A DNA stretch of 63,045 nt from Methylacidiphilum caldifontis (GTDB lineage: Bacteria > Verrucomicrobiota > Verrucomicrobiia > Methylacidiphilales > CAMAQI01): assembly GCA_945877805.1 (NCBI GenBank), contig CAMCSM010000005.1, positions 1 through 63,045 on the forward strand, given 5' to 3'. Made by a program: the position numbers and the translations under genes. The notes beneath the pieces were generated by a model. It ran no database searches. It was not told the DNA's origin and saw nothing but the letters and a program-made list of their open reading frames with translations. The first letter of the stretch is position 1. Each line of letters starts with the position of its first letter. This document shows positions 3,945 to 31,451 of the stretch, one piece after another.

Positions 3945-3969
3945 GTTATCGAAAATTTAAAAAAAAATC

Positions 3970-7032: not shown

Positions 7033-7084
7033 AATCAAATCCATTCATCTCCCGCGGCGACGCGGCGACGCAGCGAAAAACAAG

Positions 7085-7111: not shown

Positions 7112-7132
7112 GATAAGCATTCAGGGGTGTTT

Positions 7133-7837
7133 ATGAACGACTCCAAAGATTTGATCCTGCGCCGCATCCGCGAAGCCCTCAAAAGCCCAGCCCCGGTTCC
7201 CGGAGGTCATGACTACTCCCATGCGGAGACAACCCCCACACGACCCAAGCCCGATCTTGGAAGTTTTCGCCAATTTTTGCCTGAGGTCGAAAATGATTTT
7301 AACAGTCAATGGAGTCTTCTTTCCAAAAATTTTACCGCTTTAAAAACAGACTTCGGACTTCTGGATTCCAAAGAAGAGCTGACTCGATTTGTTCAGGAAC
7401 TCCAACGCACCGAAAACTGGAAACGGATCGGATATCATCGCGGCGGACTCACCACACCGATCATCGATTCGATTCAAACGGAAAAAGTTTGCGTGAATGA
7501 TCCTTACGATTGCCAGGACCTGGAAAAGTGCGATGTCGGCATCAGCGAATGCGACGCGATCGTCGCTCAAACCGGAAGTATTTTAATCACCGCCCGCAGT
7601 GCCGGTGGCCGCGGACTCTCCGCCCTTCCTCCTCATCACTTAATCCTCGCAAGAACTTCTCAAATGGTTTCCGATCTCCCCGCCGCCTACGATCTCCTTT
7701 ATCAACGCTACGGTCAGAGCTATCCGAGCATGATCAGCTTCATCACCGGCCCCAGCCGTACCGGCGACATCGAACGCATCGTCGTCCTCGGTGCCCACGG
7801 CCCTAAAAAATTGACCGTCGCGATTTTGAAAGATTAG
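7133..7837 (+). CDS. lutC: Lactate utilization protein C (LUD domain)
   Basis: 'ILRRIREAL' at the N-terminus and 'VGISECDAIVAQTGSILI'. It is the third gene of the lutABC order. ATG 7133 follows a GGGG; the ORF-track start is GTG 7127. Confidence 0.8.
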   Translation: MNDSKDLILRRIREALKSPAPVPGGHDYSHAETTPTRPKPDLGSFRQFLPEVENDFNSQWSLLSKNFTALKTDFGLLDSKEELTRFVQELQRTENWKRIGYHRGGLTTPIIDSIQTEKVCVNDPYDCQDLEKCDVGISECDAIVAQTGSILITARSAGGRGLSALPPHHLILARTSQMVSDLPAAYDLLYQRYGQSYPSMISFITGPSRTGDIERIVVLGAHGPKKLTVAILKD

Positions 7838-9523: not shown

Positions 9524-12500
9524 TTAGAAAACCTTCAAGAGTTCTGCAATCACGGCAAGATTTCCTTCATTTTCATCATCAAGTTCGATGGGAGCGTAAT
9601 CCAAATTGATCGGCTTGAGGATAATTTTGGAGTGTTCCCAACCTTCATCCGTAGTTCTTTTTTCGCTCTGATAACGTTTAAGTGTGTATTGACCAAGCCC
9701 ATCCGGATCTTGGATTGAGGCGTGATAAACGAGCAGGTCTTTTCCCTGTCTACTGCCAATACCAGGGGGTCCAAAAAGACACCATGATCCATCGGGAACT
9801 TTTGGTTCCATCGACTTTCCGGTGACTCGAGCGATAAAATACCCGTCTCGAATCGAAGTTCCTTCCGGAGGAATAACCCAATGTTTCGCTTCTTCAAATG
9901 ATTTAAGGTCTGACCCCATTTCAGCACCCCAAGTTCCGGCTGCAATAACGAGGTCTTCAAAAAGCGGAAGACAATTGCGAAACGCTTTCCGGTCCGATTC
10001 TGGAACGAGTGCAAAAGGAATAGGTTGAGAGCGATCAAAAATCTCCGAGTCCATTTTCGAAGGAGCACTTTCATTTGCGAACCAATCATTTCTCTTCACT
10101 ACAATTTCTTTTAAATCAGAGCGTTCGAGATAACGAGCTAACAGTCGAAAGTGCTTTCGCATCGCTTCAGGGTCATGGAGTTCATGAGCGGTGATCGAGA
10201 GGACTTCCCAATCCATTTCCCTTAATTGTGTTCGTATGATTTGATCTTTTGCTGCAGTTTGTGGGTTTCCATGAAGATGACTGCTTAACCCATCTAGATA
10301 GAGCGCCACAGATCGAAGATCTTCGTCTTCAGGTCTGAAAATGGCATCAGGTGTTGTCGTTCCTCTCCCAGTGCCAAGATGAAGTTGTTCCTGCCAAGAG
10401 GCCTCTGGAAAGCCCGCAGAGAGAAGAAGTTGACGAAGTCGGCGTTCGGCGGCGTTTACAGGGGCAAAATTATCTTGAGGAACTTCACCATGACTTTGGA
10501 GTATTGGAATCGTTCGTAGTTCTGTCAGTGAGCCTGCTGAACAGCTCAGGAAAGACTGAGCTCGGTGTCGATCGAGGTGAGGATGGTAAAACGAATTTCG
10601 ATACGTTTGAAGGCAGTCTGAACAGGATGCTTGGCATCCCGAGGGACAATCCTCGGTAATTGAAATTGCTTTTGCCTTTACCTCTGGAAATCGTTCGATC
10701 AGTTGCTCCAAGAGTCCTGATCCTCCGGGCATTGGATCGACGAGGTATGCGGTGACTTTGTCGTTTTCCATGTGTCCCATGACAACGAGTTGGAGATCTT
10801 CTTGTGCCATTTCTAACGTGCTGGCTGCGGCAAAGCGAATCGATTCTAAAACGCTATAGGCCTCTGTTTGATCGGAGAGATTCGGAAATTTAATAACATC
10901 AGCAACGAGGTCCGTATGCAGGGCTACTTCATCCGCAGTCTCACGCTGATCATTGCCACATCGTTCATGATGACCTTTTTTGAAATTTACCTTTTGGGCA
11001 TCAGAAGCGATCGGAGAGACGCTATCCCCACAAACAGAGCAAATGAGGTATCCAAAATTAATTCTTTTTTGAATTTCTGAATTAGATCCGACGTTCGCCA
11101 TCCGTAAATGCTGTCCCTTTAAAAAATGAATTTCTTGAGAGCCCCATAAGAATGCCTTCCCCCCCGAGTGACGGGACCGCTCCAATCCAAGAACAGCAAC
11201 CCCCATTTGAAAGCGATAGTCCTCTTCATCCGAAATTTGTGAGATATGAACTAGGTCGACATCCGTTAAGGGAAGCGAAGGTAAGGTTCTCGAAGTCGGA
11301 GTGCCTGAATGCCCTTGATCGACTTCACGTATTGCACTTTTACCCACTGTTACTTCTAACACGCAAACATCTCTCTCCTCTGCGGGTTGAAGTTGATAGC
11401 GCCGACTAACGAAGCGATGTCCATTGGCATAAATTAAGTTTCCTGGAACATATTCTCGAAGAGCCAAAAGCGGGGGACGGGGAAGTTCTAGTTCGCCAGA
11501 GTTGCCGGATTCCCAAAAAGGAATCTCTGCTGACCCCATAATCGAACCACGCTCTAATCCATATCCTGGAAGAAATCCCTCGAGGGCAAGTACGCTGTAG
11601 GTGACGGTCTCATCTTGACCCTCCCCTTCGCTTCGGCCTCGCTTCATCTCTCCCTTGATTCTTTTGATATAACGTTCGCAGCGCCGACGAATCGCTTCAT
11701 CTCCTGGATCAAGCGTTCCTGTTTGGCGTTGGAGATCATTGAGACGAGTTACCGTTTGATGAGACCAATTCAAACGACGTTGAAGCCGTTTCATCACGAG
11801 AAGGAGTTGGTCGACAAAACTGTCGATCGAAGAGGAAAGTAGTTTTTCTTCGATCACTTCGGAATCTTCTTTCGGCCAGCCTGCTGAAAAAACATCTAAA
11901 ATATGGTCTAGTATTTCTTGCTTGTGATCTTGAATTGATCTCCTCAATGGGGATAAGTCAGACAAAGTCGATCGAAGTTCATTTCCATCAAAAAGCCATG
12001 ATCGTACAGTTTTTGGAAAAGCGGCATCCAAAATTAGAGCAAGGGAGGGGGCATTCTGTGCCTTTTGATATAAACGACTGATAATCGTGGCATGGATATG
12101 TCTTCGCACCATCAGCGGATTAGAAAGATTGAAGACCGGCGCATCGACGCGTCCTGCCAGTAATTTTTCGGGGTGTAAGAAGTAAGAGCGATCATGACTC
12201 ACATCACGACAATAGGTGACATTCACCGCCATGCGATTTCGTCGACCCGCTCGACCGACCCGTTGCCAGTAGTTCGCTGGAAGTGGAGGAACATTTCTCA
12301 TCAGCACCGCATCAAGGGCTCCAATATCAACCCCCATCTCGAGAGTTTGGGTGCAGACAAGGGTATTTACGGCTTTTGATTTTATATCCTTAAACCAGTT
12401 TTCGATCTTTTCTCGGCGAGTATGAGGGACCATCGCCGTATGTTCTTCAGGACGGATGAGCTCATAATTTTGATCGAGCAACCGAAGATTATAATCATCG

Positions 12501-15430
12501 GAGTTCTCGGATTGAAATTCAAGAATCCCACTACATCGATAAACAGGACAAAGACTTTTCGGAGTCTTTCGGGTCATCCGACGACTACATCGTTTACATC
12601 TCCAGACTCCCTGACCGGGAACTAACTCTAATAAATTAGAGTCAACTTGGGAAAGACCAGATTGTTCCGGCAGTGATTTTCCCTTTGCGCCGAGAAGGTT
12701 TACAGGGACAAGCCATTTAAACTCTTGAAAAAAATGAAGAAGATCAAATAGAAATGGACTGAGATCATCCTCTTCAACTCCCCACTTTCGAACGGCTTGT
12801 TTAATATAAGTCGAACCCGTGGTTCCCTGCCATTGAATGACATAAGAATCTTTGTCTGATGCTTCACGCGACATCTTTGTCCCCTTGGGAGGATCCATAT
12901 CGGGAAGATAGCCATTTTGAATCTCTGAATCTCCGTGATTCCAGAACTTGCTGAAAGTTTTATGAACAGGATCGAGGAGAACCTTTTGTCTTCTTAAATA
13001 GTCAAGAATGCTCGCGGCCCCATCACAGACTTCATCCGGTGAGAGTTTTAGTTTTCGAGAGGCTTGAATGATAAAGGGTAAATGGGGAGTAAGACCTTTG
13101 TAATCGACTCTCATTCGACCCCAAGGTTCTAGTCCGAGAATTTGTCGGGGAGCCATCGTGATTTCACGAAGAATGGTCATTCGAAGAAATTTCTCCCGCT
13201 CTTTGGTGTGATTCATTTGAGCGTTCGCTGGAGCGACCCTCCAGACCTCGGGTAAAAGAGCATGAGAAAGACTCTCCTCTTTTTCAAATAATTGAGAGAG
13301 TGTGAGGGTCAAGTCTCCAACGGAGATCGGTCCTTTTTTTAATTCATCCGCAATCAATGACCTTAATCGAAATCGTCTCGCGTGATCTCTCATCCAACCG
13401 GATTGAAAGGCGGCATCTTGGCGGTTGTCGCAAAAGATCAAGAGTCTTTGGGGATCAAGATGATTGATCATGTCCTGAGCAAGCACATGGACGTCGGCAA
13501 CAGCAGTGGTTCGAACAGGACGAGCGGGCTCCCGGTAGCCAGCTCCCACGCGCCGCCCGTTTGCATCGCAGGTGAGGCAACGACTTAATACACCAGGATT
13601 CTCCTCTTTTGTCTGAATGGAATACAATGCAACCAGGGGATCGGGTCTTCCGCAATGTCCACATTGAGTTACTTTTTGATCATGAAAAGTCCCACAATAT
13701 CGACAGAAAAAAACAGGTGCGACTTTTGATTCGGGAATTTCTTCGCCTGAGACAAGTGAATCCACTAAGACACAACGGAGTCCGCTTTTCGCTTTTTCCA
13801 ATGGCTCCCAGTAACGGCTTTTTCCTGAGGCTTGCCCTCCTCCAAGAACTTGAGAGGTATGATGAAAATCCCGATGGTGACTTGAGAAGTAATGTTGCCC
13901 GCAAGTCGTACAAGTGGAAACAGCCAATCGAAATAAACCCTGATTTTCTTCATGAAGCTCCGCTGAAAAATGAAGCTTAAGATCATCGCCTGCTCCCGGA
14001 AAGGTAACGGTCGCTCCTCCGATTCCACGCATGAAGGCATGAACAACCGGGCGGAGTAACGGTCGATTCTCTTGGGAGGCCATTGCTCCGAGAATGAGCC
14101 AAGAAAGAACCTCTTCCTCCGTGGTTTCTCGTTTAAGTGCCAGTCCAAGTTTTTCAGTCGTCTCATGAAGGGGAAGCGGCTTTTCCAACAGTTGAGCGAG
14201 TTGATAAACCTCTTCAGACTGAGAAAGACCCTGATAGAGATCTTCCATGAAAGAGGCTTTTTTTACGAGAGTCCGGCCGCTTAAAGCAGTAAAGGCATGA
14301 CGAATCGTCTCTTCAGTTCCATCGACGGCAAGAACGCACTGTTCAAGAGCCTCCGAGCAATTTTTTGGTGCTGCTGAAATCGTTCGTCCAAGGGGCCAGG
14401 TTTGTGCGACATAGGACTCTGCAACGGTTGTGACTTTATCAATGGCAACTCCAAAGAAACGACTTGCAAATCGTTTGGCTGCATGGGGGTCTTTTGGGTC
14501 AACAATCGTCGCTGAAGTCGCAATACAGGTGGTGTTTTCCGGACTTTTTTCACAAAATCGAAGTAAGCGTCGAATGAGGCAAGCGGTCTCAGCCCCTTTT
14601 GCTCCGGTGAAAGTATGAGCTTCATCAAAGACTAAAAAATCAAGTCGAGCATTCGTAAATAGTTCGACATCCGTCTGGCGAGTGAGAAGGAGCTCCAATT
14701 GGTTTACGTTGGTTAAAAGAATCCGGGGTTGCTTTCCCGCTTCACGCATTTCTTCCCGAGAACAAAGCTCCTCAGCTGGATAAACGGTTTCGCCTGACTC
14801 TCGTTTCTGGGCCTCTTCCACCGCCTTCTCATAATCAGCACGCGAGGATCCCGGAGATAAGCGTTTTCCTGCGACATCCCCTTTTTTTCCAGGAGTCTTT
14901 CCGACATACATTCCAAAAGAAATTCCAGTTCCCGCCAATAAGCCCCTTAATCGTAACAGCTGATCTTCGGCTAAGGAGTTCATCGGATAAACTAAAACAG
15001 CGGAGATTCCCGACGCAGCTCTTGAATCGCGAAGGTCAAGGCAACGACTAATAATCGGATAAAGAAAGCATTCCGTCTTTCCTGATCCCGTTCCCGTCGA
15101 GATCAAGGTTGTTTTGCCGGATTGAATCGCCCGAATGGCCTCCTCCTGATGTTGATAAACGTGCTGAATGGAGGAGGGAATACGATCGCGAAGGAGAGGA
15201 TGAAGTATTTTTTCTTCAATCAACTTTTTGACCTCGCACCCCTGTTGAAAGGGACGACTTAAGGTGAGGTAAGGCCCCTTTAAAAGCGGTGTCGATCTTG
15301 TTTTGGTCAACGAAAGTAATTCCCTCATTTGAATATCCAGTCGGGGATCGGCAAAAGGATAGGCCGTAAGTTGGTAGCGTAAAAAACTGCCGACGACACG
15401 GTCGGTGAAAGCAATTGGATTTAAGGACAT
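9524..15430 (-). CDS. 1968-aa DEAH-box helicase + DUF1998 (DruE/DrmAB/MrfA-like) fused to a Vsr/DUF559-like endonuclease domain and a C-terminal LexA-type S24 peptidase domain
   Basis: Helicase: motif I 'STGTGSGKTE', motif II 'VFDEAHTF', motif VI 'QRVGRAGRR', several CxxC pairs. DUF1998-type: 'LEGFLPGYG', 'DPMPGGSGLLEQL', 'CPSGCQASCSDC'. Nuclease-like: 'TPDAIF..ALYLDGLSSHLHG..KDQIIRTQL..WEVL'. S24: 'LVIAAG', 'VTGKSMEP', 'YTLKRY'. Confidence 0.85.
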   Translation of the reverse strand: MSLNPIAFTDRVVGSFLRYQLTAYPFADPRLDIQMRELLSLTKTRSTPLLKGPYLTLSRPFQQGCEVKKLIEEKILHPLLRDRIPSSIQHVYQHQEEAIRAIQSGKTTLISTGTGSGKTECFLYPIISRCLDLRDSRAASGISAVLVYPMNSLAEDQLLRLRGLLAGTGISFGMYVGKTPGKKGDVAGKRLSPGSSRADYEKAVEEAQKRESGETVYPAEELCSREEMREAGKQPRILLTNVNQLELLLTRQTDVELFTNARLDFLVFDEAHTFTGAKGAETACLIRRLLRFCEKSPENTTCIATSATIVDPKDPHAAKRFASRFFGVAIDKVTTVAESYVAQTWPLGRTISAAPKNCSEALEQCVLAVDGTEETIRHAFTALSGRTLVKKASFMEDLYQGLSQSEEVYQLAQLLEKPLPLHETTEKLGLALKRETTEEEVLSWLILGAMASQENRPLLRPVVHAFMRGIGGATVTFPGAGDDLKLHFSAELHEENQGLFRLAVSTCTTCGQHYFSSHHRDFHHTSQVLGGGQASGKSRYWEPLEKAKSGLRCVLVDSLVSGEEIPESKVAPVFFCRYCGTFHDQKVTQCGHCGRPDPLVALYSIQTKEENPGVLSRCLTCDANGRRVGAGYREPARPVRTTAVADVHVLAQDMINHLDPQRLLIFCDNRQDAAFQSGWMRDHARRFRLRSLIADELKKGPISVGDLTLTLSQLFEKEESLSHALLPEVWRVAPANAQMNHTKEREKFLRMTILREITMAPRQILGLEPWGRMRVDYKGLTPHLPFIIQASRKLKLSPDEVCDGAASILDYLRRQKVLLDPVHKTFSKFWNHGDSEIQNGYLPDMDPPKGTKMSREASDKDSYVIQWQGTTGSTYIKQAVRKWGVEEDDLSPFLFDLLHFFQEFKWLVPVNLLGAKGKSLPEQSGLSQVDSNLLELVPGQGVWRCKRCSRRMTRKTPKSLCPVYRCSGILEFQSENSDDYNLRLLDQNYELIRPEEHTAMVPHTRREKIENWFKDIKSKAVNTLVCTQTLEMGVDIGALDAVLMRNVPPLPANYWQRVGRAGRRNRMAVNVTYCRDVSHDRSYFLHPEKLLAGRVDAPVFNLSNPLMVRRHIHATIISRLYQKAQNAPSLALILDAAFPKTVRSWLFDGNELRSTLSDLSPLRRSIQDHKQEILDHILDVFSAGWPKEDSEVIEEKLLSSSIDSFVDQLLLVMKRLQRRLNWSHQTVTRLNDLQRQTGTLDPGDEAIRRRCERYIKRIKGEMKRGRSEGEGQDETVTYSVLALEGFLPGYGLERGSIMGSAEIPFWESGNSGELELPRPPLLALREYVPGNLIYANGHRFVSRRYQLQPAEERDVCVLEVTVGKSAIREVDQGHSGTPTSRTLPSLPLTDVDLVHISQISDEEDYRFQMGVAVLGLERSRHSGGKAFLWGSQEIHFLKGQHLRMANVGSNSEIQKRINFGYLICSVCGDSVSPIASDAQKVNFKKGHHERCGNDQRETADEVALHTDLVADVIKFPNLSDQTEAYSVLESIRFAAASTLEMAQEDLQLVVMGHMENDKVTAYLVDPMPGGSGLLEQLIERFPEVKAKAISITEDCPSGCQASCSDCLQTYRNSFYHPHLDRHRAQSFLSCSAGSLTELRTIPILQSHGEVPQDNFAPVNAAERRLRQLLLSAGFPEASWQEQLHLGTGRGTTTPDAIFRPEDEDLRSVALYLDGLSSHLHGNPQTAAKDQIIRTQLREMDWEVLSITAHELHDPEAMRKHFRLLARYLERSDLKEIVVKRNDWFANESAPSKMDSEIFDRSQPIPFALVPESDRKAFRNCLPLFEDLVIAAGTWGAEMGSDLKSFEEAKHWVIPPEGTSIRDGYFIARVTGKSMEPKVPDGSWCLFGPPGIGSRQGKDLLVYHASIQDPDGLGQYTLKRYQSEKRTTDEGWEHSKIILKPINLDYAPIELDDENEGNLAVIAELLKVF

Positions 15431-16101
15431 AACGGAATCTCCATTTGTAAGTGAGGTCGAGCGGAATCATTCAGCGCACCCACTAATTGATCCATGTCGG
15501 TGGCAGGTGAAAGGGTACTTGATTTTAAATGTTCTTCTCGAACTCTTCGAGCATGAAGCACGGCTTGAGGAATTTTTGGAATGAGCGAACCCGTTGGAAC
15601 GGCGTTTTTCTCATACTCAGGATAATATCGGCGAAGTTCCCGTTTCGTCGCCTCGTAATCTTGAAATGACTTAGTGGTGTACGTTTCATGAAGAAGGAGC
15701 CAGTACTCAAAACAGGGACGTGAGAGAGCAACGTTAATTTTTTCCCTCTTTGCCAAATCAAGAGCCTGTTTCAGAACCGATTCCTTTTCCTTTGTTTCGA
15801 TTTCAGAGTCCAAGACACACCACACTTCATCAAAAGCCAATACTTCAGAGCTCGCTTTGCGAGCCTCCTTTCTACGTTGGGTTCGTAAATCGATCGCCTC
15901 TTTTACGAGCGTCATCGGATCTGTTCCCTTAGCTTGTAGAATTTCAATGGTAGAGAGCTTTAATCGATCTCTTAATCCCTCGAGATATTGCGGTTCCGTC
16001 TCCTCTCCCTCGGTGACGATGAGAAAGGTCTTTCCACTTGAGGCTGTTTTTGAATTTCTTCCTCGTCTGAAATTTCCGATCTCACGATCGTAGTTGCTCA
16101 T
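15421..16101 (-). CDS. RloB-family (AbiLii-like, TOPRIM-like) protein
   Basis: 'FLIVTEGEETEPQYL', 'FDEVWCVLDSE', 'ALSRPCFEYWLLLH'. ATGA overlap with the upstream ATPase gene and a 10-nt overlap with the helicase start. Confidence 0.85.
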   Translation of the reverse strand: MSNYDREIGNFRRGRNSKTASSGKTFLIVTEGEETEPQYLEGLRDRLKLSTIEILQAKGTDPMTLVKEAIDLRTQRRKEARKASSEVLAFDEVWCVLDSEIETKEKESVLKQALDLAKREKINVALSRPCFEYWLLLHETYTTKSFQDYEATKRELRRYYPEYEKNAVPTGSLIPKIPQAVLHARRVREEHLKSSTLSPATDMDQLVGALNDSARPHLQMEIPLCP

Positions 16102-17393
16102 GAGCGGATCAAGGCTCCATTGCTTTTGAAAAAGGGCACCGCTCCATAACGACCGCCGAGATACCCACGCTCCAATGACTCTTGGGCGCGTGGCTTATAA
16201 TCGGTTAATGGATAGAGGAAGGAATCCCCCTCTGGGCGTTTCTCAGAAAACCAGATCTGATCTCGACGAAGGGTATTGGTATTCAAGAGGGTCGGATTGT
16301 GGGTCGTAAAAAGAATCTGCGCCCCTTTCGGATTTGTCTTCGGGTCAAAAAGAAGTTTTAAGAGAGCTTTGACTAAAAGCGGGTGAAGACTGTTTTCCAG
16401 TTCATCGATGCAAACGGTGTAGCCTCCCTCGAGAATATCGAGCCATGGACCGCACAGCGCATAAAACCGACGGGTTCCCGCGGATTCCTCGCTCGCATCC
16501 ATCGAAACGAGTTTATCCCCCTTACCGGTATGCTTTAATTGAACGGTGGTGGAGGTGGGATCGGCAAGCTTTCCGCTGGCCTCGAGTTGAGAGAAAAGGG
16601 CAGGAGGGAGATCTCGTCGAACCTCTTCGAGAGGAATCTTTTTTTCATAAACGTCGACCCCTGCAATTCCAAAATCGGCCTCTCGAATCATTTCAATGAC
16701 TTTTTGAAACAAGTCTGGGCGTGTTTTATGAAGTCCATTGGTATAGGAAGGTAAGAACTGTCGATCGGCATCTAGGGCGATAAAACGGAGCTGATTGGGA
16801 AACCATCCATAGACATCGAAGAGTTGGGGGTGATTCAGTTGAGCCCCGGTTGAAAGAAAAAGAGCATTATCCCGTGTCATCTCCCGGAGCTTGCTGTCAT
16901 AACGAAAATTTTCGGTCGGAGGACTCCATTGATACTTGTCACCTTTCCAAAGACGCTCAAACCAGACTTGTGGTTTTCCTTTTGGATAAACGATGAGAAC
17001 TTCCTCCGTGACCCGTTCTGAAGTCAGGGAAAACCGATAGAGATGGCGCACCCCTTCTAAAATGAATGTGACTTCAAAAGAGGAGGGTTCGTGGGTCGAT
17101 TGTTCATCGAGTCGAAAAGGCATTACTCCAATCGTCTGTCCAGGAAGGAGTTTTGAAAAAGAGCCCTCGACGAAGCTCTTCATATACTCGATTGCAGCGA
17201 TAAAATTACTTTTTCCCGAGGCATTGGCCCCATAGATCGCCGCCGCTTTCACGATTTTTCCGTTTTTAAATCCTGGAATATCGACCGCGATAAAGTTCTC
17301 AGGCAACGTTTGATCGTAGTTGCTGGCGACCATGTTGAGGATCGCTTCTTCACGAAATGACCGGAAGTTTTTAACTCGAAATTCGATTAACAT
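16098..17393 (-). CDS. ABC/AAA_21-type ATPase (AbiLi / RloA-like)
   Basis: 'FRVKNFRSFREE', Walker A 'GANASGKSN', 'CIDELENSLHP' and 'TTHNP' form an OLD/AbiL-type ABC ATPase signature. Confidence 0.85.
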   Translation of the reverse strand: MLIEFRVKNFRSFREEAILNMVASNYDQTLPENFIAVDIPGFKNGKIVKAAAIYGANASGKSNFIAAIEYMKSFVEGSFSKLLPGQTIGVMPFRLDEQSTHEPSSFEVTFILEGVRHLYRFSLTSERVTEEVLIVYPKGKPQVWFERLWKGDKYQWSPPTENFRYDSKLREMTRDNALFLSTGAQLNHPQLFDVYGWFPNQLRFIALDADRQFLPSYTNGLHKTRPDLFQKVIEMIREADFGIAGVDVYEKKIPLEEVRRDLPPALFSQLEASGKLADPTSTTVQLKHTGKGDKLVSMDASEESAGTRRFYALCGPWLDILEGGYTVCIDELENSLHPLLVKALLKLLFDPKTNPKGAQILFTTHNPTLLNTNTLRRDQIWFSEKRPEGDSFLYPLTDYKPRAQESLERGYLGGRYGAVPFFKSNGALIRS

Positions 17394-17397: not shown

Positions 17398-18084
17398 TTA
17401 AAGTAGTAATTTTATTGGGTAATGTCGAGTTTTTTGCGTATTTTTCGTTAAAAAGCCTCTTTCGACTAAATCGGCGACCCAGTGGGCGGCGGTATCAAAC
17501 CGGATCCCCTCATGGTATTCTGTCCCTGTGCCTTGGCTCATCCCCTGCATAAATTTTTCGGGCGTAGAAAATTGGGTCCCAGAATAGCTGCTCTTCCAGT
17601 AAAGGTTCACAAACTCCAGATCATTCATCGCCACGATTTCATTTTTAAACTCCCAAGGGTCTTTGGGGTCTAGGGAAAATTCGTAGCGGATCGGGAATTC
17701 CTTCCGAACATCGACCGCCATCGACTGAGGGTTCGCAAAATCTCCCGTCACGATGAGCTCGCCGACAGGCTCTGGGTAAAAGTAAATCCAGCCCTCGATC
17801 TCCTCTTCGGAGCGGGTGATCAGAGGGGCCTTTTTTCGGCAGTAGGAGAAAGGGTGACCCTCAATGATATCGATCTGCCTTAAAGTTTCATCGCTGACTT
17901 CGTAGAGCTCGCCGATCACAGGGCGAAAGGGGATTTCTTGGACGCAGAAAGGGATCCCGCGAGCGAACAGTGCGTAGGGGTACTTCGTCCTGGCTTCTCC
18001 CAAGAACTTTGAATTCATGAGCTGGCTATGCAGGGCAAAGCCCCGGCGCAGGGTTCCGTAGCAAAAAAGGGGGGTTGTTTTCAT
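17398..18084 (-). CDS. Gamma-glutamylcyclotransferase (GGCT/AIG2-like) domain protein with an unknown ~110-aa C-terminal domain
   Basis: 'LFCYGTLRRG', 'VIGELYEV', 'IDIIEGHPFSY' (catalytic-Glu context) and 'IEGWIYFY'. I do not recognise the C-terminal half. Confidence 0.75.
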   Translation of the reverse strand: MKTTPLFCYGTLRRGFALHSQLMNSKFLGEARTKYPYALFARGIPFCVQEIPFRPVIGELYEVSDETLRQIDIIEGHPFSYCRKKAPLITRSEEEIEGWIYFYPEPVGELIVTGDFANPQSMAVDVRKEFPIRYEFSLDPKDPWEFKNEIVAMNDLEFVNLYWKSSYSGTQFSTPEKFMQGMSQGTGTEYHEGIRFDTAAHWVADLVERGFLTKNTQKTRHYPIKLLL

Positions 18085-18107
18085 CTGTTTTATGATAGCG
18101 GATTTAA

Positions 18108-19481
18108 TTAAAAATATCTTTCATTCTCAATTTCTGGAAGCGTCAGCTCCTGCTGAACCGAGGAAAGATGTGACCATGCTCCTGATTTTAGTTTAGCGAT
18201 CAATGCTTCAGATGCATATTTTTCAAGCCACCTCGAGTTTAGCCCAGAATCGACCGCTTCTGCGGCAAGCTTATAGACCAGTGTCATATTCACCTCCATT
18301 TCAAGATCCTTATGAATTTTTATGATCCCTTGTTCAAATTCGCATTGAGTTGGTGGGTCGAGGTGGATCCAAGATGAATTAAAACGGTTTAAAAGCTCCT
18401 CAGGGATTGAGTTTTGTTTTTTAATGGGAGTCGTTTCTTGAGTTGAGCCAAATCCGACCGTAATCTTTTTTTGGTGAAGCGTCTGCCAGGTTCCGGCCCC
18501 GATGATCATAAAATTATTTTGAAACCGTTTTTGATTTTCACGAGACCATCCTGGGAATACTTGGGTGCGGCAATCTAAAAGAGCATAAACTTCTTGCTGA
18601 ATATTTTTACACCAGTCGGTCTCTGCGGAAAATTTATCAAGCTCATCGATCATTAAAACCCCTTTTCCTTCGAGGTCGATAAACTCATTGATGACTTCAA
18701 GAGTTGATTTTCCTCCCTTTCCGCCGGTGACGATCCAAGAGCCGCTTTCTAAAGATATAAAGGGAAGCGACCTCTTGTTGGCAAATGCCTTACAAAGAGT
18801 TGTTTTACCAACCCCGGAAGGGCCAATAATCAGTGGAATAGGGCGAGTCCAAATCCCCCCCGGGCGGATATTGAGTTTTTTAATTTGATAAAAATCCTCA
18901 AGAGTCTGCATCGCTGCTGTCTGCGAGTTTGTTAAGACAAGATTGCGGGTATTTTCATTATTTTCCTCTGGTGAGGGCGCAACAAGGCTAATAAAGGGGT
19001 TTTCATTTTGGGTTAATTTAACCCAAGTGGTGAGGTCTTCAGGATGCGGTACAGTTTTTGTGATGATGTAGCAGATTTTTGCGTAAGGGAGCATCTCAGC
19101 AATCTTGGACTTGTCCGAAAAACTTAAATATCGCTTATTTTCATCCGTGGATTGCTTAATCATTGTAAATAGAAGCTCAATCAGCAGATCAATCTTATGC
19201 ATCGCTTCAGGGAGATAAGTTTTATGAGTTTGATAGCAAAATAGCTTTAAAGCCAAAAATTCGACATAGCGAGATTCTGCGATTTCCTGAAGCTTTTTCA
19301 GGAACTTCGCGATACGAGGAGGCGCATCAATAGACTCTGGAGGAAAATTCCAGTGAATATCGCAATTTTTGCATTCGTCCCAAGCGTCCGAAACTTCTTT
19401 TACATAATTCATTGCTTGAAGTTGAAACGCCTTTTGGATTTCATAATTTGATTTTGATCCAACTTCGATATTTAGCTTCAT
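18108..19481 (-). CDS. AAA+ ATPase with an unknown ~210-aa N-terminal domain
   Basis: Walker A 'GPSGVGKTT' and Walker B 'VLMIDELDKF', followed by a classic AAA+ spacing. Confidence 0.75.
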   Translation of the reverse strand: MKLNIEVGSKSNYEIQKAFQLQAMNYVKEVSDAWDECKNCDIHWNFPPESIDAPPRIAKFLKKLQEIAESRYVEFLALKLFCYQTHKTYLPEAMHKIDLLIELLFTMIKQSTDENKRYLSFSDKSKIAEMLPYAKICYIITKTVPHPEDLTTWVKLTQNENPFISLVAPSPEENNENTRNLVLTNSQTAAMQTLEDFYQIKKLNIRPGGIWTRPIPLIIGPSGVGKTTLCKAFANKRSLPFISLESGSWIVTGGKGGKSTLEVINEFIDLEGKGVLMIDELDKFSAETDWCKNIQQEVYALLDCRTQVFPGWSRENQKRFQNNFMIIGAGTWQTLHQKKITVGFGSTQETTPIKKQNSIPEELLNRFNSSWIHLDPPTQCEFEQGIIKIHKDLEMEVNMTLVYKLAAEAVDSGLNSRWLEKYASEALIAKLKSGAWSHLSSVQQELTLPEIENERYF

Positions 19482-19586
19482 AGGGTTCTCCGGTTTAATA
19501 GTTAATATACGAGGGTCGCTAAGTATAGATTATGCAAGTTTTAAAAGAGAGATCTGTGGCCTGCGAGATCGTTGATAATCAATGAC

Positions 19587-20255
19587 TTAAGGGAATGGAT
19601 GGGGGAGTCGTATATTTTTGTAATCTTGATAAAATTGGAGAAATTTATTCGATTGATCCTGAAGCATGCTTAAAGTTGCTTCGGCTTTAAGCTGATGCTC
19701 ATACCGGTACCCTGTTCCAAAATTCATCCCGCTTACTCCAAGATGCTCGAGATAGCAAATATCCGAAAAGCTCCCGATATGAATTTCGAACCCTTTAGCT
19801 TCTAATATCGATCTAAGTAGTGGATTATCGTATTGGTAGAGGACAACGCCTGATTCGCGACGATCAAACTCAAAAATCCAGTGATACTTTTTTTCAGTTT
19901 TAAAGAATTGGGCTGTGCTTTGTCCGATCTCTTCATCCGTGGATAAAAGGATATCAAATTCGCACCCCGCCTTTTGGAGAACATTTAGCAGGAGATGGAG
20001 GCCTAGCCGATCATCTACCCCCGTGGAACGAAGGATATCTCCCTCAACCTGAGGAGCGGTAATGGGGTTAACGGTGTCAATATGGGCAATTCCGAGAATC
20101 GAGGCATTAAAATCTTTAAAATAGTAGGGTCGGCCAGCCTCTGTATTTTTTTCAAAACCAAAGAGAGCTAGATAGGGATCGAGATCACCTTGAAATGCAA
20201 TGTCGATATTTTGAAGGAGATCACTAATGCTAACCGGAGAGATGTTTTTGTTCAT
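19587..20255 (-). CDS. Small M42/M20/M28-like metallopeptidase
   Basis: The metal-ligand pattern is 'AHIDTV' (H-x-D), 'GVDDRLG', 'STDEEIG', with later D and H ('SFSDI', 'YEHQ'). Confidence 0.6.
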   Translation of the reverse strand: MNKNISPVSISDLLQNIDIAFQGDLDPYLALFGFEKNTEAGRPYYFKDFNASILGIAHIDTVNPITAPQVEGDILRSTGVDDRLGLHLLLNVLQKAGCEFDILLSTDEEIGQSTAQFFKTEKKYHWIFEFDRRESGVVLYQYDNPLLRSILEAKGFEIHIGSFSDICYLEHLGVSGMNFGTGYRYEHQLKAEATLSMLQDQSNKFLQFYQDYKNIRLPHPFP

Positions 20256-20310
20256 ACCTGTAAGTATTACAGGATTTTAATATTTTTTTTTAAAGTAAGA
20301 GATAATGTTT

Positions 20311-20337
20311 AATCTGCGTAAATCTGCGAAATCTGCG
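20311..20337. repeat. Three tandem AATCTGCG units in the divergent promoter region
   Basis: aatctgcg at 20311, 20321 and 20330. A 16-mer follows, tgtctgaccccctctg (20352-20367), which recurs exactly at 52722-52737. Confidence 0.8.
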
Positions 20338-20394
20338 GATCAGACCGTCGTTGTCTGACCCCCTCTGCGAGGATGGATCAAAAAAGGAGATCCC

Positions 20395-21378
20395 ATGACG
20401 TTTGATCCATCAATTCCTTGTAAAAGTCAAAAAACCGAACCCTATCTCTGCCCTGAGTTGAAGCGATTCCACCAAGACTTGACCGAGCTTGGATTTGAGG
20501 AGAGCCGAAGTCACCGGATCCGTCAGGCGGTCGTCGGGTTCAGCAGTGGAATTCGGATTGGTTTATCTCCAAAACCGCTAAAAGAGCTCACAAGATACAA
20601 AGAGCTGGCGAAAGATCTCTTTCTCGATGAGGCTTCATCGGCGCTGGAAAGTTTGGAGGCCCTCTACCTGCGGCTCCAGGACCCTGAGCTCAACATGCTT
20701 CAAAATCTGCGGGCGGCTTACGAAGAGTGGCTCGATTCCGAGGAGACTACTGAGGCCGCAAAGAAAAACCTTTTGGCCTTGTCGATCGGAATGGGGATCA
20801 AGGCGGTTGAATTGGAATCCTTCCTTGTTCCTGAAATGGAGGAGATTTTCAAAATACTCATCCCGAGCCAGCGGTTCATCTCCGAGCGGCTTCTGGATCT
20901 TTTAGGGGGAGGAAAGGAAGTTCGTCCTCTTTTGATCGACTACTTTCACTTTACTTATCAGGAGAGTCCCCTGGAGTTGAAAGTCATTCCGGAGTATGCG
21001 GCTCGGTTTTATCCTGAGGGAGGGACCGACTTCGTGAGCTGGCTATTGGCGGGGTATGGACATGGGAGAGAGTTTTCCCGGAAAAACCTGGAACTGAGAG
21101 ATGCGCTCTTTGAGTCCGTGGGGAAGGAATCCATGGAAGTGAATAACAGAATATATGATCAACTGTTTAACGAAGAGCCGAAGAAAGACTTTGCGCCGAC
21201 GAGCGAGCTGGTCCTATCGGCGCTTTTCTGGTGCCGTCGCCAACATCGGCATCTTTTTCTGGATGAGAGTCCGGTCCACCGCTTTGAATTGATCCGCAAC
21301 CTCTACGATTTAACTTTCTGGATGGGCCTCATCGGCGAGAGCCGAAGGCAAAAGGCGGTAGGGAGAAATCAGTTTTAA
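20395..21378 (+). CDS. Hypothetical protein (327 aa, helical, no recognised domain)
   Basis: Long ORF with a good SD (aaggag, 8 nt upstream of the ATG). No motif recognised. Confidence 0.6.
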   Translation: MTFDPSIPCKSQKTEPYLCPELKRFHQDLTELGFEESRSHRIRQAVVGFSSGIRIGLSPKPLKELTRYKELAKDLFLDEASSALESLEALYLRLQDPELNMLQNLRAAYEEWLDSEETTEAAKKNLLALSIGMGIKAVELESFLVPEMEEIFKILIPSQRFISERLLDLLGGGKEVRPLLIDYFHFTYQESPLELKVIPEYAARFYPEGGTDFVSWLLAGYGHGREFSRKNLELRDALFESVGKESMEVNNRIYDQLFNEEPKKDFAPTSELVLSALFWCRRQHRHLFLDESPVHRFELIRNLYDLTFWMGLIGESRRQKAVGRNQF

Positions 21379-27254: not shown

Positions 27255-27839
27255 TTATGAGGCTCCCTTTGTTTCTTGTAAAATTTGCGCACCATACGCC
27301 GTTAGTCGATACCTTTGAAGTCGACTAGTCGGCTTATCGGGAATGGTGCGCTCCACGAACTTCAGCTCGACGAGACGTTGGATTTGTTTGTTGAGCTCCC
27401 CGGAGACCGTTTGGTGACCGAGCTTTTTCGCCAAATGGATCTTTCCTTCTTCCGCTTGACCCAAAAGAACGATCAACTTTGCCGCTAACCTCGACTCTAG
27501 CCGCGACTCTAGCCGTTCATCTCCGGATTGCGGCTCTCGACGGCTGGCTTGGATGGGTAGAGAAAGCACCTTTGGATGAACCGGAAGACGGATCACGAAG
27601 GAGAGTCGATCCTCATCCGTTTCAAATCGGGGCTTCGGTGACCCGTTCTCCTTCATCGCCTTGAGGATTTTTGGGATTCCCGTGGAACGCCCCTCCGTCA
27701 GGTCGAGTTCTTTGAGGAATTCGCCAATCCGACGATTTCGGTACCGTCGGGAAACCGCTTTTCCTGCCCTCAGATCACTCATTTGAATCGATCGATCAGG
27801 GTCGTTGAGCATTTCAAGGATGTTGAGAGGGAGTGGCAT
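27255..27839 (-). pseudogene. N-terminally truncated paralogue of the AlbA_2/HATPase_c_4/wHTH regulator (C-terminal 194 aa only)
   Basis: 'SRRYRNRRIGEFLKELDLTEGRSTGIPKI' aligns with 'SQIRNPVIARVFRELDLVEQWGSGIPGI' of the 492-aa protein. Both end with '..SRLQ(R/K)YR(L/I)..'. The AlbA_2 N-domain is missing. Confidence 0.6.
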
Positions 27840-27848
27840 AGGATCACT

Positions 27849-28409
27849 TTAATGGGACATTAATTTTCTTACCCCTGAGACAAACACATTAAAACTTGCA
27901 GAACGATTACGGTCAGGGGTCATTTTTTTTGCAATCTCTGCTGCCCGAATCAATTTGGCCCGGGTTCCTGTTAACTCTTTTATCAGTTCTGAAGCATTTG
28001 TTAATTCATCAGGATTTCGTCGCATTAATCCTTTATAAGCGGAATGTCGTTTGGCATTTGGATATGCCTCCCCTACTGCATCTAGATCTCCAATAAACCA
28101 ACTTTCAAGCTCCTGACAGACGATTCGAATTAAGAACTCGGGCGAAGTTTCTGGAACTCTGGTTTTTAGCTGTTGTTTTAAGTTGGAGCAATTAGATCCA
28201 TCATTATCTCGCAAAATGATGAACCGATCATCAGGCTTCCTCCATTCTCGCATCTTTTTCGGAAACGAGGACTCTAAATCAGATTTACCTTTGTGATGGA
28301 TCAGTATCCAATGCTGAAACTCTAAAAATTCTGGGAAAAGCTTTGGAAATAACTCTCGAAGAGTTATCCCCATGGATTCCTCTTCCGTCATAAATATGAT
28401 ACGGCTCAT
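27849..28409 (-). CDS. DUF4276-type (TOPRIM-like) protein
   Basis: 'IIFMTEEES' supplies an acidic strand and 'FIILRDNDGS' a DxD, plus 'CQELESWFIGDLDA'. ATGA-type 4-nt overlap with the upstream ATPase. Confidence 0.75.
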   Translation of the reverse strand: MSRIIFMTEEESMGITLRELFPKLFPEFLEFQHWILIHHKGKSDLESSFPKKMREWRKPDDRFIILRDNDGSNCSNLKQQLKTRVPETSPEFLIRIVCQELESWFIGDLDAVGEAYPNAKRHSAYKGLMRRNPDELTNASELIKELTGTRAKLIRAAEIAKKMTPDRNRSASFNVFVSGVRKLMSH

Positions 28410-29611
28410 GTCACCAGTAATGATTTGCTGTTAAAAAGACCTTGGTTCCATAAATACCCGGGGAGATCTCCTTTCTTGTAAAGGCGAACCAAGAGAGGGT
28501 GATCGGAAGCATGATAGACAGTAGATTTGCCGTTTTCCTTTTCGAGCCAATAAATACAGTCCAGTGGCACAGAATTTAAAAAATCGGGCGAGTGAGAAGA
28601 GACAAATACCTGTCCCCCCCGCTCGGAGTATTGTAAAAATTCCTCCGCTAAAACACTCATTAACTCGGGATAAAGCTGATTTTCCGGTTCTTCAACACAA
28701 AGAATCGGATGTGGTTTTGGATCAGCCAATAAAACCAGATAAGCAAACATCTTAATCGTTCCATCGGAAACATTTTTGTCGATAAAAGGATCCACAAAAG
28801 CACCATCTTTGTATCTCATCAACAAGCGACCATCATCCGTGACAGTAACCGCAATGTCTGCGACACCAGGCACTCGCTCCAACATTTTTTTCTTAATGGA
28901 CTCGAAAATACCAGGATGTTTTTCGTATAAATAGCGAGCGGTGGAAGGGAGATTATCTCCGCTTGGTGAGAGATGGAGGGAATCTTCCTCCTCTTTGTCT
29001 CCGCGAGCACTGCTGATATGAAAGTCGGAAATATGCCAGTTCTCAATTAACTGGCGAAATGCGGAGGCGGCTTTAAACCGTTCAAATTGGCCTAAACCTT
29101 TTACGGCAAGTGTTTCAGGAGAATCCAATTTTTGAGGTTCACGCGTTAACTCAGAATCTTTTTTATCAAAATCCTCTTCGTTCGTAATCGCATAGCCTTC
29201 TCCGTTCTTAAAATCAATAAAATGGAAAGGAGATCCATGGGGTCCACGTTTATAGCGAAGGATTTCACGTTTAACGATGGGACCATTGCCTTGGTCATTT
29301 CCAATTTCAAGACGATAAGTCACCAGTCGATTGGTGCCAGCGATATCCAATCGAAACTGAATTTCGATCTCTAAATCTTCATTTTCATGACCACGACTAA
29401 GGACTTCTTTTAATCCATTGCGGCCACCTTCAATATTTAAAGCGGCCCTTACATTTTTTGCCAGGCAGTTTTTAAGGAAAGCAAATACTCTAAACAGGGT
29501 TGTTTTGCCTGTACCATTGCGCCCAACAAAAACACAATAGGGAGGAACCTCTGTAATTTCAATATCACAGAGGGCCTTAAAGTTTTTGACTCGGATCGTT
29601 TCAATATTCAT
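28406..29611 (-). CDS. ABC/AAA_15-21-type ATPase partner of DUF4276
   Basis: 'IRVKNFKAL', Walker A 'GRNGTGKTT', 'CVEEPENQLYP', 'SSHSP'. Confidence 0.8.
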   Translation of the reverse strand: MNIETIRVKNFKALCDIEITEVPPYCVFVGRNGTGKTTLFRVFAFLKNCLAKNVRAALNIEGGRNGLKEVLSRGHENEDLEIEIQFRLDIAGTNRLVTYRLEIGNDQGNGPIVKREILRYKRGPHGSPFHFIDFKNGEGYAITNEEDFDKKDSELTREPQKLDSPETLAVKGLGQFERFKAASAFRQLIENWHISDFHISSARGDKEEEDSLHLSPSGDNLPSTARYLYEKHPGIFESIKKKMLERVPGVADIAVTVTDDGRLLMRYKDGAFVDPFIDKNVSDGTIKMFAYLVLLADPKPHPILCVEEPENQLYPELMSVLAEEFLQYSERGGQVFVSSHSPDFLNSVPLDCIYWLEKENGKSTVYHASDHPLLVRLYKKGDLPGYLWNQGLFNSKSLLVT

Positions 29612-29675: not shown

Positions 29676-31451
29676 TCATTCCTCCTCCTTCTTACAAATA
29701 CTCTTTGTCTCCGCCAGCAGATCGTCAAATTTTCCATAATTCACTTTTACACCGTCATCGAGATCGAGGGAAATCCGTTGATCGGCGAGGTGGCGGAGTT
29801 TTTCTTCGAAGTGGTGGAGCTCCGCCTGTTGTTTGACGATCGTCTCCTTCTCTCGCTCCAGCTTTTTGCGGGCACTCGTGGAGGTCGCAGCGGCGATGTC
29901 GTCCTCGAGATGAGCGATCCGAGCGGTGAATTTGGATTGGAGGGGGATTACATATTCCGTCCGCATCCGGGAGAGGGTTCCGGGATTATAGCGATGGAGA
30001 TAAACGAGGGCTTGGAAGGCCTGCTGTTTCCCGCTGGTGAAGAGCCAGTAAATCGGCCGCTTTTTGTAGGTCTGAAGATGATCCTTGTAAAACTTATCGG
30101 CGAGATAGGAGCGAATGATCTCACGGGGGGAATCTCCAGAGATCCCAAGACTGGAGGCGATCCAGGCGAGATTTTCCTCCAGATGCTCCCGTGGCCAAGC
30201 GGTGGCGATGAATTCCTCCAGCCGGTTTGCGGTATCGTCGGGGAACCAGGCCATTCCGGTCAGGGGAACAATCCCATCGGCATCGGCAGGAAAGGTCATG
30301 TAGTTTTGAGGATCGAATCCTTCTCCTCCGGCGTTGGCATAAACTAAGCCAGGTTTATCGAGCGAATAGCGCCCCATCATGCAGCCGATGGCGTAGGAGA
30401 TCAGTTCTTTGGCGGTGTCGCGGCGTAAAAGGGATTCATACTCCTCATCGGTCTTCCCTGCGCCATAACGATAGACGGGATTACAGGTCAGTGTGATTTC
30501 TTGAAGAGGAACATCGGGTGTTAATTCATCTTGAAGTCCGTAGGCGTCGATGAAAATGCGGTTGTTTTCTTCCTCCAGCCGTTTCATCTCCAGAGTCATG
30601 GAGTGCCAGTGGGACCGAAGCTTTTGATAGGTTTTCTGTGCAGTTGACAAAATGAAGTTCGAATTAAGTAGAGTTAACTCAATAAAATCCCAAGAGGATT
30701 CGTAGGAGTTCCAGTCTATTTTATGAAAAGCAATTAATTGTTTGCAATGTTCATCAATGAACTTGTACTTTTGATTTAAAATAATAGGGATTAAGGCAAC
30801 ATTTCCAACTTGAAAATTTAATGTAGGGTTCATCGCCTTCATGAAGCCGTGTGAAATATTTGAACATAATAATCCAGTCAGAAAATACCTGTCCTCTTCT
30901 GAGGGGAATGCAGATGATCCGGCAACATCAAATATAGCTTTTGTATCGGAAAATCTAACGCCAAAATAAGACGAGCTAACAAACGACCAAGTAATCGATT
31001 CGTGAAAATAATATTCGCAATTTTGAGGACGAGATCTCAGTTTGCCTTTTTCATCAGTAAAACTCTTAATTTCATAACCATTCTTTTCCCAATTAACTAT
31101 ATTTTCATTATTTCCATACCACTTACGATATTCCCCGCCTTTATTATATGGAAACCATTTCTTACTAAAATCGTGACTGCTTTTGCAATAAAAGCTGATT
31201 TTTAAGCGCGAAACTTCAAACCATTCTCGAACAAATCTCTCATTGTTTCCTGTTTGTAATCCGACTTTTACTGGTGCGATTTCCTCTAATCTTACATTGT
31301 CTTTGAAAGCCTTTCTTAATTGATCACTCGTCCAATAAGCAATCGGATTTCCGGGGATTTTCTTGAAATCATCAGCGGAGGCGCGGAAGAAGTAGCGGTC
31401 GGTAGTAGACGGTAAGGAATTGGTTGTGGATGGATTTTCAGAGGCACTCAT
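29676..31451 (-). CDS. pglX: BREX methyltransferase PglX, C-terminal half (TRD + C-terminal helical domain) as a separate ORF
   Basis: Starts with the TRD-entry motif 'IPGNPIAYWTS..GLQTGNNERFVREWFEV' and ends 'KKRPIYWLFTSGK..ALVYLHRYN..VNYGKF'. It has its own ATG 1 nt after the Shedu-like stop. Confidence 0.85.
   Translation of the reverse strand: MSASENPSTTNSLPSTTDRYFFRASADDFKKIPGNPIAYWTSDQLRKAFKDNVRLEEIAPVKVGLQTGNNERFVREWFEVSRLKISFYCKSSHDFSKKWFPYNKGGEYRKWYGNNENIVNWEKNGYEIKSFTDEKGKLRSRPQNCEYYFHESITWSFVSSSYFGVRFSDTKAIFDVAGSSAFPSEEDRYFLTGLLCSNISHGFMKAMNPTLNFQVGNVALIPIILNQKYKFIDEHCKQLIAFHKIDWNSYESSWDFIELTLLNSNFILSTAQKTYQKLRSHWHSMTLEMKRLEEENNRIFIDAYGLQDELTPDVPLQEITLTCNPVYRYGAGKTDEEYESLLRRDTAKELISYAIGCMMGRYSLDKPGLVYANAGGEGFDPQNYMTFPADADGIVPLTGMAWFPDDTANRLEEFIATAWPREHLEENLAWIASSLGISGDSPREIIRSYLADKFYKDHLQTYKKRPIYWLFTSGKQQAFQALVYLHRYNPGTLSRMRTEYVIPLQSKFTARIAHLEDDIAAATSTSARKKLEREKETIVKQQAELHHFEEKLRHLADQRISLDLDDGVKVNYGKFDDLLAETKSICKKEEE

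Follow-up and report, generated by a model that had tools for sequence, protein, structure and literature searches.

We analysed a 63,045-nucleotide (nt) stretch of Methylacidiphilum caldifontis DNA (contig CAMCSM010000005.1), referred to here as the window, and focused on three adjacent genes on its minus strand that encode a predicted metallopeptidase, an AAA+ ATPase and a protein of the gamma-glutamyl(amine) cyclotransferase (GGACT) type. The original prediction, made from the letters alone, had proposed them as a candidate three-gene defence system. Open reading frames (ORFs) and their translations were generated by a program. The three genes and their domains, with lengths in amino acids (aa), are as follows.

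19587..20255, minus strand: minimal MH-clan (M20/M28/M42-type) co-catalytic metallopeptidase, 222 aa, assigned from sequence and an AlphaFold2 model
18108..19481, minus strand: AAA+ ATPase (PF00004), 457 aa, of a rare family of mobile elements and defence islands
18972..19481, minus strand: N-terminal domain of the ATPase, aa 1-170, from alignment, common only to relatives P0003 and P0006
17398..18084, minus strand: GGACT/AIG2-type gamma-glutamyl(amine) cyclotransferase (PF06094) with an orphan C-terminal domain, 228 aa
17740..18069, minus strand: GGACT catalytic domain, aa 6-115, from the Pfam envelope, with YGTL and the Glu of IIEGHP (E75)
17443..17727, minus strand: orphan C-terminal domain, aa ~120-214, from tblastn homology

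The ORFs, their shared direction and the gaps between them (105 nt between the peptidase and ATPase genes, 23 nt between the ATPase and GGACT genes) agree with the ORF table. Every motif on which the original prediction drew is present in the translations: AHIDTV, DDRLG and DEEIG in the peptidase; GPSGVGKTT (Walker A) and LMIDELD (Walker B) in the 457-aa protein; and FCYGTLRRG and IIEGHP in the 228-aa protein. Significant homology identifies all three ORFs as real genes, each with at most ~50% identity to any relative.

The middle protein is an AAA+ ATPase, as had been read from its motifs. PF00004 matched at 46.1 bits against a cut-off of 21.2 (E=8e-12), and the nearest solved structures to the family profile were VAT, p97/Cdc48 and ClpA, with weak NCBIfam matches to PAN, ClpX and HslU. 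The ATPase core (aa ~181-428) carries the signature LTxSQ, PLIxGxxGxGK, GxW, IDELDKF, GxGTWQ and IPEELLxRF. Residues invariant across the family are G223, G225 and K226 of Walker A, D279 and E280 of Walker B, GTW at 330-332 and ELL.RF at 362-367. The N-terminal domain gave no Pfam match at E<=1 and profile searches with it were also empty; the C-terminal domain of the GGACT protein gave the same outcome, so that both domains are orphans, as first supposed.

The ATPase family is rare. We found nine relatives among 5.8 billion clusters (counts from homology searches, here and below, are lower bounds), and a scan of JGI metagenomes added one clear member (L094, 43% identity), with L095 at 26% and other matches weak. 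The family was absent from IMG/VR, GenBank phages and plasmids. Its members lie beside Wadjet genes and integrases (L001); ParD/zeta genes, a transposase and a tandem ATPase paralogue (L002); two Metallophos genes, a Fic gene and an integrase (L003-5); a RelB-like pair (L010-12); a PD-(D/E)xK nuclease that adjoins CBASS (L013); and a Metallophos gene directly upstream (L094). Toxin-antitoxin genes and integrases feature at L001 and L010. PADLOC found no known system among the partners of the ATPase at these other loci. Judged by its sequences and neighbours, the family appears typical of a conflict-system core: rare, borne by mobile elements and with exchangeable hydrolase partners. Metallophos (calcineurin-like phosphoesterase) genes adjoin or lie near it at three distinct loci (L003-L005, L094 and L022), which suggests that Metallophos is a second, possibly commoner, partner. 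The tandem paralogues at L002:8001-10298 are proteins of 264 aa without the N-terminal domain and 469 aa with it; ahead of the pair come two unannotated genes and one for an AAA_22 protein, and the ParD/zeta toxin pair adjoins it.

We next consider the 222-aa protein, whose call as an M42/M20-like metallopeptidase is borne out by conserved metal ligands and by a predicted fold that matches MH-clan enzymes. The Pfam M42 profile (PF05343) matched below threshold (18.2 versus 23.2 bits) and at profile positions 104-182 of 292 only. An AlphaFold model from 32 homologues (pLDDT 95.3, pTM 0.91) matched, at a Foldseek probability of 1.00, PepT, catalytic-domain constructs of DapE, CPG2, TET/M42 aminopeptidases and the S. 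griseus aminopeptidase (SGAP). TM-scores normalised to the targets were only 0.35-0.55, with the best coverage for the DapE constructs that hold the catalytic domain alone. Across the family, the metal-ligand columns H58, D60, D81/D82 and D131 never vary, and E108/E109 and H187 hardly do; the protein has the fold, the five metal ligands and the general-base Glu by which we recognised MEROPS clan MH. It shares the catalytic fold and the ligand pattern H-x-D, D, E-E, D/E, H with M42 (TET/FrvX) and M20 (DapE, PepT, CPG2) enzymes, but at 222 aa it lacks their dimerisation, lid or PDZ-like domain, which serves oligomerisation and substrate selection. With that domain missing and the M42 score below threshold, it is no true M42 or M20 enzyme. 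The predicted protein is a single domain, also without a C-terminal Zn-ribbon.

Pfam annotates almost none of the 416 word-sharing homologues of this peptidase. A pattern scan placed the family on 59 distinct IMG/VR contigs (5-180 kb), and we found 16 loci among 185,579 GTDB species genomes (one genome per species); a plasmid search returned one weak match only. The peptidase matches phrog_4191 and phrog_34186 (peptidase families, 1e-8), BFVD proteins labelled 'peptidase' from marine, Lactococcus and Shigella phages, and genes in Enterococcus phages of 140 kb. Family members occur in phage replication/early or conjugative-element regions, with SSB, DUF932, RadC, ParB_N, dUTPase and HNH genes. 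The family is distinct, unnamed, large and mostly phage-borne. Most members have 250-370 aa and a C-terminal CxxC...CxxC tail; the window peptidase ends just past its catalytic domain, as does P0098.

A conserved Cys-rich gene with no Pfam match is immediately upstream of the peptidase gene in 8 of ~20 loci examined. The closest relative whose neighbours are visible (P0014 at L110, 49% identical) also has an upstream Cys-rich gene, akin to the partner family over its zinc-ribbon region. The Cys-rich genes are at the following positions.

L006:593-1633, L009:6778-8004, L020:8628-9974, L021:8299-9957, L026:7090-8616, L030:8420-9724 and L110:2418-3731: Cys-rich genes upstream of peptidase-family genes

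The Cys-rich proteins have 350-550 aa, an SCWW motif and multiple CxxC zinc-ribbon repeats. Together with the phage-type MH peptidase they look like an uncharacterised two-gene phage module. The family's usual Cys-rich partner is absent from the window. As candidates for it, we rejected the 327-aa ORF divergent from the peptidase gene and the ATPase N-terminal domain (hhalign probability ~0.1% for both) and, on comparison, the upstream gene of Enterococcus phage H1.

The third protein had been assigned a GGCT/AIG2 N-terminal domain, and rightly so: PF06094 matched aa 6-115 at 75.3 bits against a cut-off of 22.8 (E=8e-21), and relatives in the PDB with the AIG2/GGACT fold include PH0828, YtfP and AIG2L1. 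Y9-G-T-L and E75 fall in conserved columns (E75 in the 'LEGHP' column) and align with PH0828 and YtfP. We take E75 to be the counterpart of the catalytic Glu of human GGACT. The original prediction had raised glutathione depletion in the manner of ChaC; this is not favoured, since the domain is of the GGACT/AIG2 type and gave no ChaC match at E<=0.1 (Pfam returned GGACT plus weak AH_C and AIG2_2 matches only). Given its family, a gamma-glutamyl-amine or an isopeptide is presumably a likelier substrate than glutathione. A single-sequence AlphaFold model of the whole protein was unusable (pLDDT 34).

The C-terminal domain of the GGACT protein had no match in Pfam, the PDB or IMG/VR. It also occurs as a free-standing ORF of ~100 aa with its own upstream intergenic region in three contigs, L016-L018 (tblastn, 68% identity over aa 120-214), and on this evidence is a separately mobile module. 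Its homology extends over about aa 130-214. The stand-alone ORF (L016:199-510, likewise in L017 and L018) has a terminator-like hairpin upstream and adjoins a two-partner-secretion pair (a TPS-domain protein and ShlB) and a transposase.

An exhaustive search of 1.84 billion representatives yielded 4,792 GGACT-domain proteins but a single full-length relative: P0132, with 44% identity across aa 2-214. Another match, P0142, covered the C-terminal domain only. The 47-kb contig of P0132 carries ribonucleotide reductase, a YqaJ exonuclease, an AAA_24 ATPase and DNA methylases and looks phage-like, although the 20 kb inspected hold no structural genes. P0132 overlaps the start of a 460-aa Amidoligase_2 gene by 4 nt. 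The GGACT domain itself matches phrog_2520 (2e-17), a phage 'moron/AMG' PHROG, and the GGCT genes of phages UFV-P2, NV1 and CW02; the protein had no plasmid match.

These matches connect the gene to a phage cassette of GGCT, amidoligase, GATase and ATP-grasp genes, which is said to be known from work by Iyer and colleagues in 2009 and Hardies and colleagues in 2013. The window GGACT domain matches genes of the cassette and its full-length relative is coupled to Amidoligase_2. The window differs in its setting, a chromosomal defence island in which the neighbours of the GGACT gene are the ATPase and AbiL genes; we found no amidoligase, GATase or ATP-grasp gene among the window ORFs that were Pfam-scanned from 220 to 50952. 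Two papers present such cassettes as a recognised feature of many podophages, and give the hypothesis that they remodel peptidoglycan or tag proteins (PMC5498523, and PMC11318856, which cites Iyer et al. 2009).

Recurrence of these genes elsewhere links two of them. One of the 16 genomic peptidase loci, in a Verrucomicrobiae metagenome-assembled genome (L022), carries a 297-aa ATPase-family gene that ends 16 nt before a 267-aa peptidase-family gene. The L022 ATPase is 29% identical to the window ATPase over 253 aa (BLASTP 1e-23), has all the signature motifs and lacks the N-terminal domain. Its gene precedes the peptidase gene, the reverse of the order in the window; because of this reversal and the deep divergence, the L022 pair is not a recent copy of the window pair. 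Since both families are rare, two adjacencies among ~8 distinct ATPase loci are very unlikely to arise by chance. L022 is an integrative mobilizable element with two integrases, a MobA/MobL relaxase, a weak TIR_2 protein and a Metallophos gene, and no GGACT gene accompanies the pair. As far as sequence comparison goes, L022 is the sole positive evidence for a functional link within the trio, and it joins two genes, not three.

The trio as a whole was found at no other locus among ~75 peptidase-family and ~8 distinct ATPase-family loci. No GGACT gene lay within 6-10 kb of the peptidase gene at the ~75 peptidase loci, at motif-level sensitivity: the screens for neighbours matched degenerate DNA motifs, with lower sensitivity than hidden Markov models would give, and recovered ~64 of ~80 (~80%) known peptidase loci. 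The ATPase loci L001-L005, L010-L013 and L094 had neither a peptidase-family nor a GGACT gene. These results largely go against a three-gene system, as the set does not co-occur elsewhere in these searches and two of its families (peptidase and GGACT) are mainly phage-borne. The idea of a joint module fares better for the ATPase and the peptidase, whose pairing recurs once, independently, in L022. Because each gene has at most ~50% identity to any relative, the lineage is poorly sampled, and the trio's absence elsewhere is weaker evidence for that reason.

Comparison with known systems leaves the trio without a named counterpart. PADLOC 2.0 had nothing that matches the peptidase or the GGACT protein, and the literature searched held no paper tying GGCT-fold enzymes to phage defence; in agreement with the original prediction, we found no described system of this composition in either source. 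The closest analogy that had been drawn is to IetAS, reportedly (from work of Gao and colleagues in 2020) an AAA+ ATPase, IetA, with a subtilisin-like protease, IetS. The likeness holds at the level of logic, an ATPase beside a peptidase in defence islands, and fails at the level of family membership. IetA models were the best PADLOC matches of the window ATPase, yet reached at most 23.3 bits over part of the protein (aa 174-287), and NCBIfam IteA_antiphage gave 13.1 bits against a cut-off of 510. The window partner is of the di-metal MH-clan exopeptidase type, not a serine endoprotease, and PADLOC returned no IetS match. As in ClpXP, HslUV and the PAN-proteasome, the window AAA+ ATPase is encoded beside a peptidase; unlike in those machines, no aromatic residue is evident at the aligned pore-loop position of this ATPase, and the peptidase has an exopeptidase-type fold with no known compartment-forming domain.

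Based on the rarity of the ATPase family, the L022 pair and the phage relatives of the third protein, we favour, tentatively and with less than even confidence, a two-gene ATPase-peptidase conflict module beside a GGACT gene of phage ancestry that is linked to it by adjacency only. The evidence does not establish the trio as a new defence system of three genes. The three enzymes each appear active, and their surroundings are a genuine defence island; we infer a physical or functional coupling of the pair, its defence role, the substrates and any involvement of the GGACT protein with the pair. The reading has two units: (i) the genes at 19587-20255 and 18108-19481 encode a rare AAA+ ATPase of the classic type, whose N-terminal domain is lineage-specific, and a stripped-down di-metal MH-clan exopeptidase or amidohydrolase; and (ii) the gene at 17398-18084 encodes a phage-type GGACT enzyme that would free 5-oxoproline from gamma-glutamyl-amine or isopeptide linkages. 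In the first unit, the ATPase may be a nucleotide-driven sensor or remodeller, its N-terminal domain the likely input, and the peptidase an effector, which would trim a protein or peptide, or remove its acyl groups, when a phage or mobile element attacks. The second unit may act alone or take products of the first, for example by resolving the gamma-glutamyl adducts proposed for phage amidoligase cassettes.

Several observations count against this reading. The pair recurs once only; at 5 further distinct loci where the context of the ATPase is visible, and at ~75 further loci of the peptidase, the two genes are apart. In its nearest homologues the peptidase has another upstream partner, which is Cys-rich. 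In the profile alignment with VAT, the KYYG pore-loop position faces 'sgargsp' in the family (VTGGKGG in the window), with no aromatic residue; the invariant W249 lies a few residues upstream. An unfoldase role for the ATPase is uncertain when no obvious aromatic pore-loop residue is present. Lastly, the separation of the GGACT gene draws on GC content and non-recurrence only, and gaps of 23 and 4 nt tie this gene to the ATPase gene and AbiLi no less tightly than operon partners are tied.

Were the ATPase and the peptidase to work together as a conflict module, a di-metal exopeptidase would join the effector types of prokaryotic immunity, and the pair would mark out a small AAA+ family in which the hydrolase partner is exchanged (phosphoesterase, nuclease or peptidase). 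The module would also offer a first functional handle on the large unnamed 'peptidase' family of many phages. Should the GGACT protein take part, gamma-glutamyl chemistry would enter the phage-host conflict from the host side, and the puzzle of the phage amidoligase/GGCT cassettes would become experimentally approachable. At present the locus has cautionary value: adjacency in a packed defence island is no evidence of a system.

The original prediction had placed the trio at the head of a defence array. It does form the 5' end of the array, but is not free-standing, as seven tightly packed co-directional minus-strand genes run from 20255 to 8988: the peptidase, ATPase and GGACT genes, then AbiLi after 4 nt, AbiLii (overlap of 4 nt), DruE (overlap of 10 nt) and, 2 nt after the DruE stop codon, a 177-aa ORF with a weak PDDEXK_5 match. 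Spacing sets no limit to a three-gene unit, because the array continues tightly past the third gene. The features of the array beyond the trio are listed below.

20256..20394, upstream of the minus-strand peptidase gene: AT-rich divergent intergenic region with a short hairpin at 20257-20273
15421..17393, minus strand: AbiL system, with AbiLi at 16098-17393 and AbiLii/RloB at 15421-16101
9524..15430, minus strand: DruE (Druantia helicase) homologue, 1968 aa, last large gene of the array (PADLOC DruE3, 1.8e-113)

Judged from its sequence and position, the intergenic region at 20256..20394 is probably the promoter region of the array. Consensus promoter and terminator scans performed no better than on shuffled sequence and are mute on operon boundaries; the consensus scan gave no convincing terminator within the seven genes. 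The GC fraction is 0.38-0.44 in the peptidase and ATPase genes and 0.48-0.52 in the GGACT gene, similar to AbiLi. The step from the ATPase gene to the GGACT gene fits a history of its own for the latter. AbiLi (PADLOC 1.7e-94; Pfam AAA_21) begins 4 nt past the GGACT stop codon, and AbiLii (4.9e-21; RloB) overlaps the start of DruE. The DruE homologue has Pfam DEAD, Helicase_C and MZB domains and a C-terminal LexA-like Peptidase_S24 domain (aa 1829-1962).

The best-surviving alternative, which we consider doubtful, is that the three genes are unrelated phage or mobile-element cargo (morons or remnants) gathered at an integration hotspot, with no joint function and none of them necessarily defensive; the peptidase and GGACT proteins could then serve the host as they serve phages. 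The mostly viral peptidase family, with its 59 IMG/VR contigs, Enterococcus phages and BFVD phage peptidases, fits this account, as do the 'moron/AMG' PHROG match and phage-like closest relative of the GGACT protein, the loss of the usual partner and the Zn-ribbon tail by the window peptidase, and the distance of each gene from any relative (at most ~50% identity). It sits less well with the retention of all catalytic residues in intact ORFs, the absence of the ATPase family from viral, phage and plasmid collections, and the second ATPase-peptidase adjacency in L022. Nor did we see an integrase, tRNA or repeat boundary around the trio; the window holds no tRNA.

Unlikely, and next in order, is the single three-gene abortive-infection system of the original prediction, in which the ATPase would sense infection and the peptidase and GGACT proteins would be effectors or processing steps, for example by unfolding, trimming and cleaving gamma-glutamyl linkages or by depleting a gamma-glutamyl metabolite. 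Co-direction, the short gaps, the defence-island location, intact catalytic motifs in all three proteins and the lack of any PADLOC system that claims these genes speak for it. Proteolysis would also yield gamma-Glu-Lys isodipeptides, the classical substrate of GGACT. Against these stand the trio's absence from every other locus found, the sole full-length GGACT relative beside an amidoligase rather than an ATPase or peptidase, the GC step, and an L022 pair with no GGACT gene.

It is quite improbable, though arguable from the layout, that the trio is an accessory part of a larger operon that runs via AbiLi/AbiLii into DruE, which would then be a new system, Druantia-like or an extension of AbiL, with as many as seven genes. 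The continuous tight spacing with no convincing internal terminator favours this view. DruE is also present without its known partners DruA-D, F, G, H and M (the type-specific sets DruABCD, DruMFG and DruH; the five proteins upstream match no Dru model), and what sets Druantia types apart is the variable gene content upstream of DruE. The array corresponds to no recognised type of Druantia. However, AbiLi and AbiLii already form a complete, recognised two-gene system; the closest plasmid homologue of DruE (Synechocystis, 45.6% identity, fragmented) has unrelated upstream genes; GC content varies along the array; and tight packing is normal in defence islands and no proof of co-function.

A last reading, which we regard as very improbable, makes the trio a host counter-measure that erases gamma-glutamyl or peptide modifications installed by phage amidoligase/ATP-grasp/GGCT cassettes: the AAA+ ATPase would engage the modified target, the MH exopeptidase would trim it and the phage-captured GGACT would cleave the remaining gamma-glutamyl-amine linkage to 5-oxoproline, so that defence would act by removal of a phage-made post-translational or cell-wall modification and not by cell killing.

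The surroundings of the trio are a real defence island, as had been proposed, with AbiL, DruE, PDC-S11 and a BREX operon with embedded Shedu and HEC-01. The dense island extends from ~8.9 kb to at least ~47 kb of the window. The left flank (220-7837) is housekeeping, with amidohydrolase, pyruvate phosphate dikinase, FAA hydrolase and LutABC genes. On the other side of the trio are a divergent orphan ORF, then PDC-S11 (PADLOC 1.6e-119), then BREX; further island genes encode a UvrD/GajB-like helicase, AbiEi and YhcG. The divergent ORF (20395-21378, plus strand, 327 aa, GC ~0.51), between the trio and PDC-S11, had no Pfam, NCBIfam or PHROG match and a marginal PADLOC match to AbiEi only (E=0.035).

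The BREX operon is of type 1 and carries embedded HEC-01, Schlafen/AlbA_2 and Shedu genes, with extra defence genes at 27255-29611 and 34631-36109 on the minus strand. Within it, the HEC-01 pair consists of an AAA_21 ATPase of 401 aa (8e-181) and a DUF4276 protein of 186 aa. A 194-aa HATPase_c_4/Fic-like_C protein is also encoded in the operon, and a 492-aa Schlafen AlbA_2/HATPase_c_4 protein between brxC and pglX. The pglX gene is in two minus-strand ORFs, an N-terminal half at 32685-34634 (PADLOC PglX 1-614 of 1174) and a C-terminal half at 29676-31451 (621-1170). A complete Shedu gene (31453-32688; SduA_C, 1.2e-36) lies between the halves in a sharp GC trough of 0.355, so that either Shedu was inserted into pglX or PglX is naturally split.

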